From Escherichia phage RCIP0363, in sequence record PV464739.1: a stretch of 64,000 nucleotides of DNA. One strand, 5' to 3'. The notes under the pieces were generated by a model that was not told where the DNA came from, searched no databases, and worked only from the letters and a program-made list of their open reading frames with translations. This document shows, one piece after another, positions 43,652-44,491 of the stretch. A program made the translations under genes and the position numbers. Position 1 is the first letter of the stretch; each line of letters starts with the position of its first letter.

Positions 43652-44491
43652 TTATTCCGCTTGATCACCGTCTTCGGCATCTTCGTTGGGTTCAACATCG
43701 ACAAACTCGATGTGGCCCATCTCTTCCAGCTTGCTCAGGTAGGAGCGAACGGAAGCGCCAAACAGTTGATCTTTAACTTTTTCGCCCAGCTCATCGATAG
43801 ACTGCGCCACGCCAACTTCGCCTTCTTTGATCGCCGCCAGAACGCGTCCACGGGTGGAATGCTCTTGCGGCTGGCTCAGGCCATTGCCAGTGTAGATGAA
43901 GTGGGTTGCTTTTGCACGACGCTGACCGTTTGCCTTTTTAGCAGCCTTACGTTCTGCGATGGCTTTGCGACGTTCTTCAGCTTCTTTCTTACGCTGTTCT
44001 TTCTGCTTTTCTGCAGCTTCTTTAGCCGCAATCTTAGCAGCTTCACGCTCTGCCTTGCGTTTCGCTTTAGCTTCTTCTTTGGCCTTCTCTTTTTCGGCCT
44101 TCGCTGCGGCACGGGCTTGATCACGCTCTGCTTTCTTAGCAGCAGCCTGTTCAGCTTTCAGGCGCTTGGCTTCTTCTTTAGCCTTTGCCTTTTCGATTTC
44201 TTTTGCTGCTTTAGCGGCTTCACGCTCTGCTTTCTTAGCAGCAGCTTTTTCTGCACGCTCTTTGGCTTTCTTCGCTGCTTCTTCAGCACGCTTCTGAGCC
44301 TTCTCATCAGCAGCCTGCTTGCGTTTCAGCGCAGCTTCTTCACGCTTGGCTTGTTTTTCCTGCTCACGCTTCTGGCGTTTTTCTTCGGCTTCTTTCTTTT
44401 TAGCCAGACGTTTTTCTTCAGCCACGCGACGACGTTCTGCTGCAGCTGCTTGTTTTTCTTCTTTAGATAATACTTTGATTGCTTCGGCCAT
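43652..44491 (-). CDS. Highly charged K/A/E-repeat protein with C-terminal globular domain
   Basis: ATG at 44491 after aagga SD; ~200 aa of alternating Lys/Arg/Glu/Ala, then a ~80-aa non-repetitive acidic C-terminal domain. Confidence 0.5.
   Translation of the reverse strand: MAEAIKVLSKEEKQAAAAERRRVAEEKRLAKKKEAEEKRQKREQEKQAKREEAALKRKQAADEKAQKRAEEAAKKAKERAEKAAAKKAEREAAKAAKEIEKAKAKEEAKRLKAEQAAAKKAERDQARAAAKAEKEKAKEEAKAKRKAEREAAKIAAKEAAEKQKEQRKKEAEERRKAIAERKAAKKANGQRRAKATHFIYTGNGLSQPQEHSTRGRVLAAIKEGEVGVAQSIDELGEKVKDQLFGASVRSYLSKLEEMGHIEFVDVEPNEDAEDGDQAE

Follow-up and report, generated by a model that had tools for sequence, protein, structure and literature searches.

A conserved and mislabelled gene of PB1-like phages encodes a predicted two-faced charged rod joined to a winged-helix domain

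What use might a phage have for a protein whose long N-terminal part is built largely from alanine, lysine, glutamate and arginine? The question arises from a gene of a Wifcevirus coliphage, Escherichia phage RCIP0363, within the 64,000-nt stretch of sequence record PV464739.1 that was analysed here and is called the window. An earlier note, made from the sequence alone, described a long repeat-rich helix or coiled coil followed by a small globular domain, and proposed a spacer or scaffolding role in a replication or nucleoid-associated complex. Database records of related phages give other names, namely 'TolA protein' (FEC19, ECML-117, vB_Eco4M-7 and several Pbunavirus records) and 'putative structural protein' (LBL3, JG024, phiKTN6, XcP1 and tabernarius).

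The coding sequence lies exactly where the earlier note had placed it, at 43652-44491 on the minus strand, and comprises 840 nt including the TAA stop codon (Table 1). The start codon is the ATG at 44491, which all GenBank relatives also use; an alternative GTG at 44497 would add just two residues, and the peptide quoted in the note sits at residues 25-94. Among seven Wifcevirus orthologues, the 45 variable sites fall 5, 0 and 40 times on codon positions 1, 2 and 3, with 40 synonymous versus 5 non-synonymous codons and no indels. The gene is clearly real and under strong purifying selection. The note had allowed that the ORF might not be expressed, a doubt removed by the peptides detected by mass spectrometry (MS) in the relatives vB_Eco4M-7 and ECML-117 (PMC7048862). 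It had also allowed that a plus-strand ORF over the same DNA might be the true gene, which we reject. The codons of this ORF line up with those of the sense frame, which means that antisense stops can come only from sense TTA, CTA or TCA, and the gene contains a single such codon, Leu8. The antisense ORF is broken by a synonymous change in Mansfield and by a TCA codon in MTx, and 40 of the 45 variable codons (seven orthologues) are non-synonymous in its frame; it is an artefact of composition.

Table 1. Features of the gene and its flanks (coordinates are positions in the window; residues are those of the 279-aa protein)
Feature	Coordinates	Strand	Description	Basis
Whole CDS	43652..44491	-	279 aa + stop, 31.2 kDa, pI 9.66, PHROG 4765	ORF, orthologue codon pattern, profile match, MS in relatives
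Charged alpha-helical rod, residues 11-186	43934..44461	-	Predicted hendecad rod, about 26-28 nm; basic face and opposite acidic face	
Flexible linker / basic arm, residues 187-196	43904..43933	-	G-x-R-R-x-K/R-A-T; pLDDT <50 at 186-191	Family alignment
Winged-helix domain, residues 197-264	43700..43903	-	Folded in the AlphaFold2 model	
Acidic tail, residues 265-279	43655..43699	-	DVEPNEDAEDGDQAE, net -8; predicted disordered, pLDDT <50 at 269-279	
Antisense ORF, 354 aa	43406..44470	+	By-product of the GAA/AAA/GCN-rich sense strand, codon-aligned; no gene	
RBS	44500..44504	-	AAGGA, 8 nt 5' of the ATG	Read from sequence; phage Mansfield has an RBS annotated there too
Rho-independent terminator	43598..43624	-	8-bp stem GACCCACA/TGTGGGTC then TTTTTT, directly 3' of the gene	
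Sigma-70-like promoter candidate	44548..44576	-	TTGCTA-17-CATAAT, ~57 nt 5' of the ATG	Consensus scan; inferred only
Strong hairpin / inverted repeat	44545..44610	-	Core GCCGCCAG N15 CTGGCGGC; in the helicase-to-gene spacer	

Several of the flanking signals recur in relatives. The terminator, a strong one made of a GC hairpin and a T-run, has an annotated counterpart in Mansfield, WFC, phiKTN6, LBL3, MTx and XcP1, in each at the matching position, and the order helicase, gene, terminator is common to the window, PB1, phiKTN6, MTx, XcP1 and LBL3. At the position equivalent to the promoter candidate, MTx carries TTGCCT-17-GATAAT, and in PB1 a GATAAT lies ~52 nt 5' of the ATG. The spacer hairpin, with a folding energy of -24.9 kcal/mol (z -4.6), overlaps the promoter-like hexamers, and the equivalent spacers of MTx and PB1 are structured too.

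A full-length match to the PHROG 4765 profile (E 5.1e-83, residues 1-279 on profile positions 14-271 of 294) assigned the protein to a family hosted by PB1-like myoviruses, among them Pbunavirus, Wifcevirus and Myosmarvirus. An exhaustive HMMER search of 1.84 billion representatives recovered 26 clusters; a word-indexed protein search returned fragments only (4, then 9 matches), apparently missing the full-length low-complexity proteins. Orthologues within PHROG 4765 include the Pbunavirus proteins PB1 ORF66, 14-1 gp67, phiKTN6 gp66 and LBL3 gp64, together with Serratia MTx gp078, Xanthomonas XcP1_051 and the 'TolA' of Burkholderia BcepF1. Over the C-terminal domain these orthologues show 41-59% identity, and rods range from ~30 to 250 residues with tails of varying length. 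Members share the architecture and gene order of the phage protein, with no difference in kind. A BFVD structure search found family members only, and a plasmid search gave no match. Neither the whole protein nor its C-terminal domain retrieved anything above threshold from Pfam, NCBIfam or PADLOC; the low-complexity noise that NCBIfam does return (lipase, NlpC/P60) probably accounts for the 'cell wall hydrolase' note attached to LBL3.

The neighbourhood is as previously described, with a Dda-like helicase gene upstream (phrog_325) and genes for ThyX and phosphatase downstream. Annotation was examined in five genera (Wifcevirus, Pbunavirus, Myosmarvirus, Carpasinavirus and Tabernariusvirus), and in each of them the gene follows the Dda-like helicase within a replication and nucleotide-metabolism module. 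Such a setting would suit a replisome or recombination adaptor, in which the winged helix would serve as a protein-binding module like RPA32C, the SSB-like acidic tail would recruit the Dda-like helicase or the polymerase, and the rod would act as a rigid, distance-setting spacer. Phage SSB-type hub proteins such as T4 gp32 and T7 gp2.5 typically end in an acidic tail, which also favours an adaptor. However, the synteny may simply reflect the common ancestry of these phages and have no functional meaning, and the divergent member P0009 has no helicase neighbour.

The Lys/Arg/Glu/Ala-rich repeat reported earlier is readily seen, with Ala, Lys, Glu and Arg making up 88% of residues 11-186. Over residues 11-195 the composition is 31% Ala, 25% Lys, 20% Glu and 12% Arg, with 58% charged residues, 8 hydrophobic residues among 185 and a net charge of +28. 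AlphaFold2 (AF2) predicts residues 2-186 as one helix, with a pLDDT of 84 for the full-length model and 10-residue block means of at least 93 over approximately residues 21-130. The earlier note had left the choice between a long single alpha-helix and a coiled coil; the single helix is supported by the model, and a canonical heptad coiled coil is rejected, with a/d positions in the best register 2-6% hydrophobic and 52-67% charged and no power at period 3.5. Lys and Arg recur with a period of 3.70 residues, exceeding the shuffle maxima taken over every period, and autocorrelation peaks at lags 11 and 33 (z ~3.4). In this register the basic face is formed by positions 3, 7, 10 and 11 and the acidic face by positions 2, 5, 8 and 9. 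Placing the rod on an 11/3 wheel gives a basic resultant R of 0.37 (95th percentile of the null, 0.16), with the acidic moment pointing 175 degrees away from it.

The same pattern extends through the family. A Lys/Arg period of 3.65-3.70 was found in 22 of 25 sequences (5/5 phage orthologues and 17/20 representatives). All 20 family sequences placed on the 11/3 wheel have a basic resultant above the null and an acidic moment 124-178 degrees away, with the opposed faces in phase along 86-193 residues, although the placement of acidic opposite basic residues is partly forced by composition. Tandem repeats of 33-nt period were not found in the rod-coding DNA, so the hendecad pattern is not the product of recent duplication. 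The rod is thus predicted to be a hendecad helix lacking a hydrophobic seam, with a Lys/Arg face set against an Asp/Glu face. It is net basic in each orthologue examined, but for most of them the charge is only +1 to +14, one representative stands at -2, and Glu contributes 20-29%, making it unlike a histone-tail polycation.

Known rods resemble this helix in part. ER/K SAH domains (myosin X, myosin VI, caldesmon) share the ~58% charged residues, the missing hydrophobic seam and, judging by the model, the single long helix; the phage rod differs in its 31% Ala and in its charge pattern, which has opposed faces with an 11/3 period in place of E4K4-type blocks. E(i)-K(i+4) pairs are not enriched (14 versus 14.4 +/- 2.6 in shuffles), whereas K(i)-E(i+4) pairs are (23 versus 14.5). 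Domain II of TolA is an Ala/Lys/Glu-rich helix of similar composition, and group 3 LEA proteins and apolipoproteins have 11-residue periodicity. Unlike these, the phage protein has no membrane anchor, TolA domain III, hydrophobic face or profile match. The likeness to domain II agrees with the 'TolA' label, but an envelope-spanning TolA homologue is so improbable that we reject the identity: the N-terminus (MAEAIKVLSKEEKQ) has neither a membrane anchor nor a signal peptide, residues 1-195 include 11 hydrophobic residues and no hydrophobic segment, searches of Pfam, NCBIfam and PDB sequences gave no TolA match, and domain III is missing both by sequence and by fold, the C-terminal fold being a winged helix.

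A rod without a hydrophobic seam whose opposed faces stay in phase in all 20 family sequences tested might also self-assemble. Rods could stack basic-on-acidic, or co-condense with nucleic acid, and the resulting filaments, sheets or condensate would organise a zone of replication or assembly in the infected cell; the very high predicted expression of the gene would suit a scaffold of this kind. The idea draws on the charge pattern alone, however; the AF2 model is of a monomer and carries no evidence on oligomeric state, and self-assembly would leave unexplained why polar residues in the winged helix are invariant. We give it a slim chance.

Structure prediction, suggested earlier as a check on the distinct C-terminal domain, folds residues 197-264 into a winged helix (C-terminal domain pLDDT 83). 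The modelled elements are a strand at 197-200, H1 at 213-222, a strand at 229-231, H2 at 232-238, H3 at 248-257 and a wing strand at 261-264, and this H1-strand-H2-H3-wing topology has structural matches to solved winged helices. In the model, the C-terminus is therefore a winged-helix fold that follows a basic arm, and the acidic tail that had also been noted is predicted to be disordered. Residues 196-279 have a globular-type composition with an acidic end and a net charge of -11; most orthologues have an acidic or low-complexity tail, and in each one examined the tail is net acidic. Across the 26 family sequences, R192, Q209, S212, R214, R249 and K254 are invariant. These six residues, four Arg/Lys plus Gln and Ser, are sited on the arm, at the N-terminal end of H1 and on helix H3, and within the arm R191 and T196 are also kept in at least 90% of members. 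The winged-helix domain itself is net -3, an acidity that counts in favour of a protein-binding adaptor and against a DNA-associated protein.

Sequence searches linked the domain to known families only faintly. A Csa3 wHTH match was weak (E 0.011), and none of the 26 members reached the Pfam cut-off for curated wHTH families (MarR, ArsR, Fur, BlaI and others). Searches of PDB sequences with phmmer and with the 26-sequence profile gave nothing significant, the profile search yielding nothing below E 0.49, and Foldseek found no PDB match at E <=0.001. A weak local likeness joins H1-strand-H2 to residues 213-253 of YejK/NdpA (NA37), a bacterial nucleoid-associated protein; three of the 26 members match NA37 below threshold (best E 0.0063), the PDB profile search gives E 0.6, and we do not accept homology on an hhalign probability of 27% over 38 columns.

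In overall design, the protein recalls linker histones H1/H5, which likewise are abundant and non-enzymatic and join a winged-helix globular domain to a long, Lys/Ala-rich low-complexity extension. The phage extension differs in being N-terminal, a folded helix with 20-29% Glu and two-faced, and an acidic tail is added. There is no Pfam match to the linker histone family (PF00538), and the sole structural match is a weak Foldseek hit to the H1 globular domain 1uss (E 3.9). The archaeal chromatin protein Sso10a and Hop2-Mnd1 also set a winged helix on a long helical rod, but their rods are dimerising coiled coils with a hydrophobic seam, whereas the phage rod is seamless.

Codon usage provides a clue to abundance. 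With an Fop of 0.747, the gene has the strongest codon bias measured in the window (major head protein, 0.72; median, 0.51), and all 25 of its Arg codons are CGT or CGC (background 66%). Going by this bias, the gene is apparently very highly expressed. In CsCl-banded vB_Eco4M-7, MS identified seven peptides covering 25.8% of the protein, with a score of 1197.6 that ranks 7th of 33, above portal, capsid and sheath (PMC7048862); ~30% of the protein sequence is tryptically detectable. For ECML-117 virions the protein was seen with two peptides only (PMC7048862). Other highly expressed non-structural proteins (glyoxalase, score 718, helicase, reductase and endolysin) were found in the same experiment (PMC7048862), so co-purification may reflect abundance only. 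In the Pbunavirus SCUT-S1, the homologue S1_069 is absent from the 31 proteins of LiCl/DNase 'ghost' particles; absence from these DNA-free ghosts fits a DNA-bound rather than a shell-bound protein. MS data for phage K8 were left out, K8 not being a Pbunavirus.

Recovery from CsCl-purified virions of two Wifcevirus phages, in one with a score above portal and capsid, could mean that the protein truly belongs to the virion as an internal head protein or 'structural' protein, packaged and possibly injected, whether DNA-binding or not. Its codon bias is that of virion proteins, and homologues in five phages are labelled 'putative structural protein'. That label, however, goes back to the LBL3 record, which also bears the spurious hydrolase note, and the names 'TolA', 'structural protein' and 'cell wall hydrolase' are misleading. 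The gene is also not part of the structural module, and the MS experiment that detected the protein picked up non-structural proteins as well. The SCUT-S1 particle proteome lacks the homologue (though that sample was stripped of DNA), and the cryo-EM papers on E217, which has no MS data, and on Pa193 discuss gene products in their main texts without including this one. Overall, we regard a true virion role as quite unlikely. The role of scaffolding protein was set aside, as Pa193 gp24 fills it; judged by position only, the likely gp24 counterpart in the window is a 472-aa ORF at 7001-8419, beside the head genes.

Abundance also bears on the adaptor reading. Codon bias at capsid level and a high MS score imply far more copies than a replisome needs, and a passive spacer would need no basic face in phase along its full length; an adaptor is thus unlikely. 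The strongest codon bias and the invariant Arg/Lys/Gln/Ser set together fit a stoichiometric nucleic-acid-binding protein better than the passive replisome spacer of the earlier note. Our preferred reading, held at a little under even confidence, is an abundant, non-enzymatic architectural protein that most probably binds nucleic acid, with phage DNA as its likeliest target. The winged helix and arm would anchor such a protein on DNA, and the nearly straight basic face of the rod would lie along or between DNA segments, neutralising charge, with the acidic face turned outward. By analogy with HMGB1, T4 gp32 and T7 gp2.5, the acidic tail might compete for basic surfaces in auto-inhibition or recruit partners. 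The protein would work stoichiometrically on replicating or packaging phage DNA, and a fraction may remain DNA-associated inside the virion. Against a DNA-associated reading stand also the 20-29% Glu and low net charge of the rod, the inability of a straight helix to track the DNA groove, and the virion MS data, which may mirror abundance and in ECML-117 amount to two peptides only. A literature search found no link between Pbunavirus and a winged-helix or histone-like protein.

A bolder extension is that PB1-like phages, including therapeutic Pbunavirus, possess a chromatin protein of their own. Its winged-helix anchor and 28 nm two-faced rod would coat DNA at an abundance like that of capsid protein, and it would be co-packaged, enter the cell and there shield DNA from restriction, CRISPR or nucleases, or else organise the replication zone. 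We consider this very unlikely as a whole; if true, it would be a charge-patterned DNA coating of a kind not described for tailed phages of this size.

Judged by codon bias, the gene looks like one of the most highly expressed in the genome, and although the entire PB1-like lineage conserves it, it is mislabelled. Few Pseudomonas phages are used in therapy as much as Pbunavirus members (PB1, 14-1, E217, Pa193 and others), and for Wifcevirus phages the BASEL paper reports infection cycles that are unusually short. New here are the hendecad two-faced rod, the six invariant residues of the winged-helix family and the rank in codon bias. Even if the protein does not bind DNA, the correction of its annotation and the dismissal of the antisense ORF stand; if it does, it would represent a new architectural way to organise or protect phage DNA.

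The 840-nt gene is real and under constraint. The phage belongs to Wifcevirus, E. coli/Shigella myoviruses of about 68-72 kb, and 28 phage records, including FEC19, ECML-117, WFH, WFC, vB_Eco4M-7 and BASEL Bas99-101, are 97-99% identical to the 1.3 kb around it. Every annotated relative carries the identical gene call, labelled 'hypothetical protein' or 'TolA protein', for a product of 279 aa, 31.2 kDa and pI 9.66. A mechanical ORF list starts the gene two codons upstream, at GTG 44497; we favour the annotated ATG because of the AAGGA spacing. All seven Wifcevirus orthologues compared share the 840-nt length and lack indels; their 45 variable sites fall 5/0/40 by codon position in the minus-strand frame, with 40 codons showing synonymous changes only and 5 non-synonymous ones. 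Selection in this frame overturns the possibility, named in an earlier note as one that would refute it, of a plus-strand ORF proving to be the real gene. Because that ORF is in phase with the sense codons, antisense stops arise only from sense TTA, CTA or TCA codons; the gene holds one, Leu8, where the ORF ends. The ORF is broken in phage Mansfield by a synonymous TCC-to-TCA change and in Serratia phage MTx by a TCA codon, and 40 of the 45 variable codons are non-synonymous in the antisense frame. Phase, breakage and substitution pattern together show it to be a by-product of the GAA/AAA/GCN-rich sense strand.

Features in and around the gene for the rod and winged-helix protein
Feature	Position	Strand	Details
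Gene (CDS)	43652-44491	minus	840 nt; ATG at 44491; AAGGA 8 nt upstream
GC hairpin and T-run	27 nt past the stop	minus	rho-independent terminator
Candidate sigma-70-like promoter, TTGCTA-17-CATAAT	44576-44548	minus	consensus match in the 159-bp spacer after the helicase gene
Hairpin/inverted repeat	44545-44610		spacer between helicase gene and this gene; folding energy -24.9 kcal/mol, z -4.6
Antisense ORF	43406-44470	plus	in phase with sense codons
Linker and arm	residues 187-196	minus	motif G-x-R-R-x-K/R-A-T conserved; low AlphaFold2 confidence
Winged-helix domain	residues 197-264	minus	predicted model
Tail	residues 265-279	minus	acidic, net -8; disordered in prediction
331-aa protein, phrog_4828	42524-43519	minus	just downstream of the gene
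148-aa ORF	42012-42458	minus	within nucleotide-metabolism module; Fop 0.61, fairly high
phrog_2402	31667-32527	minus	Fop 0.69
Glyoxalase-like	38902-39453	minus	Fop 0.66
Short-chain reductase	39550-40233	minus	Fop 0.62

The product is also abundant. Published mass spectrometry disposes of the possibility that the ORF is not expressed: CsCl-purified vB_Eco4M-7 yielded seven peptides of the orthologue (25.8% coverage) with a score of 1197.6, ranking 7th of 33 and exceeding portal, capsid and sheath, and ECML-117 yielded two peptides (PMC7048862). This coverage is near its maximum, since only about 30% of the sequence gives tryptic peptides of 7-35 residues. Fop is 0.747 overall (rod 0.76, C-terminal domain 0.71), compared with 0.72 for the major head protein, 0.63 for sheath and 0.51 for the median ORF, and CGT and CGC account for all 25 Arg codons versus a 66% background (p about 3e-5). 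Such codon usage predicts capsid-protein-level abundance, in agreement with the vB_Eco4M-7 score. Both that score, high in one Wifcevirus, and the 'structural' labels across many records would fit a virion component, a reading that we consider quite improbable; the labels trace to the record of the Pbunavirus phage LBL3, which carries a spurious 'cell wall hydrolase' note too, and that experiment also brought down other non-structural proteins of high abundance. A further point against it is that DNA-stripped ghosts of the Pbunavirus phage SCUT-S1 lack the homologue, although a DNA-bound internal protein would show the same absence.

Virion-protein-level codon bias was also observed in three genes outside the structural module, encoding the phrog_2402 product, of unknown function, and the glyoxalase-like and reductase products. 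The latter two were found in CsCl-purified Wifcevirus virion preparations, and the 31.2 kDa unknown protein in those virion tables is probably the phrog_2402 product (PMC7048862). These may be abundant contaminants, or else metabolic proteins packaged by these phages.

Codon usage is a stronger expression signal than the promoter and hairpin matches in the spacer behind the Dda-like helicase gene. The promoter-like hexamers are consensus matches, candidate signals only; MTx has a promoter-like counterpart at the same position, and the Pbunavirus phage PB1 has GATAAT about 52 nt before its ATG. Overlapping the hexamers is a hairpin with the inverted repeat GCCGCCAG-N15-CTGGCGGC (core arms 44563-44570 and 44586-44593) and no U-tract, and the equivalent spacers of MTx and PB1 are strongly structured too. 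The hairpin could act in RNA processing or attenuation, or serve as the operator to which a dimeric protein binds. Across the window, the octamer CTGGCGGC/GCCGCCAG occurs at 17 sites (for example 662, 7842, 14264, 17633, 26552, 42842, 44563, 44586 and 55619), versus 1.6 expected from dinucleotide shuffles and 6.3 +/- 1.4 from synonymous-codon shuffles. Eleven of the 14 coding copies read CTGGCGGC in gene sense, nine of these as xCT-GGC-GGC (X-Gly-Gly); GGCGGC itself is enriched too (88 vs 52), and five copies read GCTGGCGG, one base off the E. coli Chi site GCTGGTGG. Codon-pair bias or a functional motif may account for the excess.

The protein consists of a rod (residues 11-186) with a phase-locked basic face, an arm, a winged helix with an invariant basic/polar surface, and an acidic tail. 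In residues 11-195, Ala makes up 31%, Lys 25%, Glu 20% and Arg 12%; eight residues are hydrophobic and the net charge is +28. AlphaFold2, run on a nine-sequence alignment (full-length mean pLDDT 84), models residues 2-186 as one helix; across about 21-130, pLDDT averaged over 10-residue blocks is >=93. Where the earlier note had offered a long single helix or a coiled coil, the helix stands and a heptad coiled coil does not: whichever heptad register is taken, hydrophobic residues fill 2-6% and charged ones 52-67% of a/d positions, with no power at period 3.5. In each of the five phage orthologues (window, PB1, MTx, JSF39 and XcP1), the strongest Lys/Arg Fourier component lies at 3.70 residues (power 1.9-3.7 vs a 95th percentile of shuffle maxima of 1.6-1.8), and autocorrelation of residue classes shows peaks at lags 11, 22 and 33 (z up to 7.5); the repeat is 11 residues long (hendecad, 11/3). 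In the window protein, register positions 3, 7, 10 and 11 are 56-75% basic, acidic residues are absent at 3, 7 and 10, and positions 2, 5, 8 and 9 are 38-50% acidic. With phase held over the whole rod, an 11/3 helical wheel gives a basic resultant of 0.37 (null 95th percentile 0.16) and an acidic moment 175 degrees from the basic one. No DNA tandem repeat was found beneath the pattern in this gene, so what is maintained is the properties of the residues. A rise of 1.5 angstrom per residue makes the rod about 26-28 nm long; that such rods form a self-assembling charged scaffold seems very doubtful.

A distinct C-terminal domain followed by an acidic tail, as described from the sequence earlier, is borne out by the predicted fold: strand 197-200, H1 213-222, strand 229-231, H2 232-238, H3 248-257 and strand 261-264 (domain-only pLDDT 83, pTM 0.68). 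In an alignment of 26 C-terminal domains of the family, R192, Q209, S212, R214, R249 and K254 are invariant, and R191, T196, G215, G227, I232, L243, G245, L252 and L255 are at least 90% conserved. All six invariant residues are polar. They lie in the arm, at the N-terminal end of H1 and in helix H3; in winged helices that bind DNA, these are the parts touching the major groove and the phosphate backbone.

The full protein matches PHROG 4765 (5e-83), which has no assigned function; Pfam, NCBIfam and PADLOC gave no match at threshold. A tblastn search with the C-terminal 90 residues returned 356 phage records, 293 from Pseudomonas (Pbunavirus) and 26 from Escherichia, plus Serratia, Burkholderia, Xanthomonas, Pantoea and Vibrio phages; examples are PB1 ORF66, 14-1 gp67, phiKTN6 gp66, LBL3 gp64, MTx gp078 and XcP1_051. 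Exhaustive HMMER searching across 1.84 billion representative proteins turned up only 26 clusters. The winged helix is C-terminal in every one, and in full-length members it follows a Lys/Glu/Ala/Arg-rich stretch of about 30-250 residues at the N-terminus. The hendecad basic face is family-wide: of 20 representatives, 17 have their top Lys/Arg period at 3.65-3.70 and 15 exceed the shuffle 95th percentile, and the basic resultant is above the null in all 20, with the acidic moment 124-178 degrees away. Charge polarity is conserved as well, the rod being net +7 to +29 and domain plus tail -3 to -14 in five phage orthologues. The most divergent member (P0009; 168 aa, no acidic tail) lies at 3101-3607 of metagenomic contig SRR34434924_79468 (L017), where transcription diverges; small opposite-strand ORFs in a row precede it and an unrelated 374-aa protein follows, with no helicase neighbour.

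The reported placement beside the helicase holds widely, with the order helicase, this gene, terminator kept in the examined Wifcevirus, Pbunavirus, Myosmarvirus and Carpasinavirus loci, and the Tabernariusvirus homologue also following the helicase. That placement had suggested a replisome adaptor or spacer, which we regard as unlikely. The adjacent phrog_4828 gene is conserved in the same four genera; its product lacks a Pfam hit, has a GxGxxG-type dinucleotide-binding motif (IIGGGLAGL) at its start and is annotated by HHpred in the Mansfield record as similar to UDP-galactopyranose mutase. A putative flavoenzyme is odd company for a replication module. The nearby 148-aa ORF has a signal-peptide-like N-terminus (MKRITGIALAATAILGTMY...) and no PHROG match.

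We tentatively favour an architectural protein that binds nucleic acid stoichiometrically. Its winged helix and arm would serve as the anchor, the basic stripe, which is nearly straight, would run along or between DNA segments, and the acidic face and tail may modulate binding or recruit partners. Against this count a generic fold, some of whose structural neighbours bind proteins, a winged-helix domain that is net acidic, and a rod that is 20-29% Glu with a modest net charge in most orthologues; DNA binding itself is something we infer. The closest likenesses are proteins joining a winged helix to an extended tail or rod, namely the chromatin proteins linker histone H1 and Sso10a, and Hop2-Mnd1; membership of those families was rejected, as no profile matched and no hydrophobic seam runs along the rod. 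By composition the rod is akin to ER/K single alpha-helices; its Ala content and the sorting of its charges by face set it apart, as does the lack of enrichment of E-to-K i+4 pairs. Nucleoid protein YejK shows weak local similarity only (hhalign probability 27%). Lacking two defining features of TolA, membrane anchor and domain III, the protein is scarcely credible as a TolA homologue.

The family is catalogued but uncharacterised, and no paper in the literature library searched deals with it. New here are the predicted winged-helix assignment, the invariant residue set, the two-faced hendecad rod, the codon-bias ranking, the corrected 'TolA' label and the dismissal of the antisense ORF. The protein, whose mechanism may or may not be unprecedented, offers a solid and testable lead in a phage lineage of therapeutic relevance.
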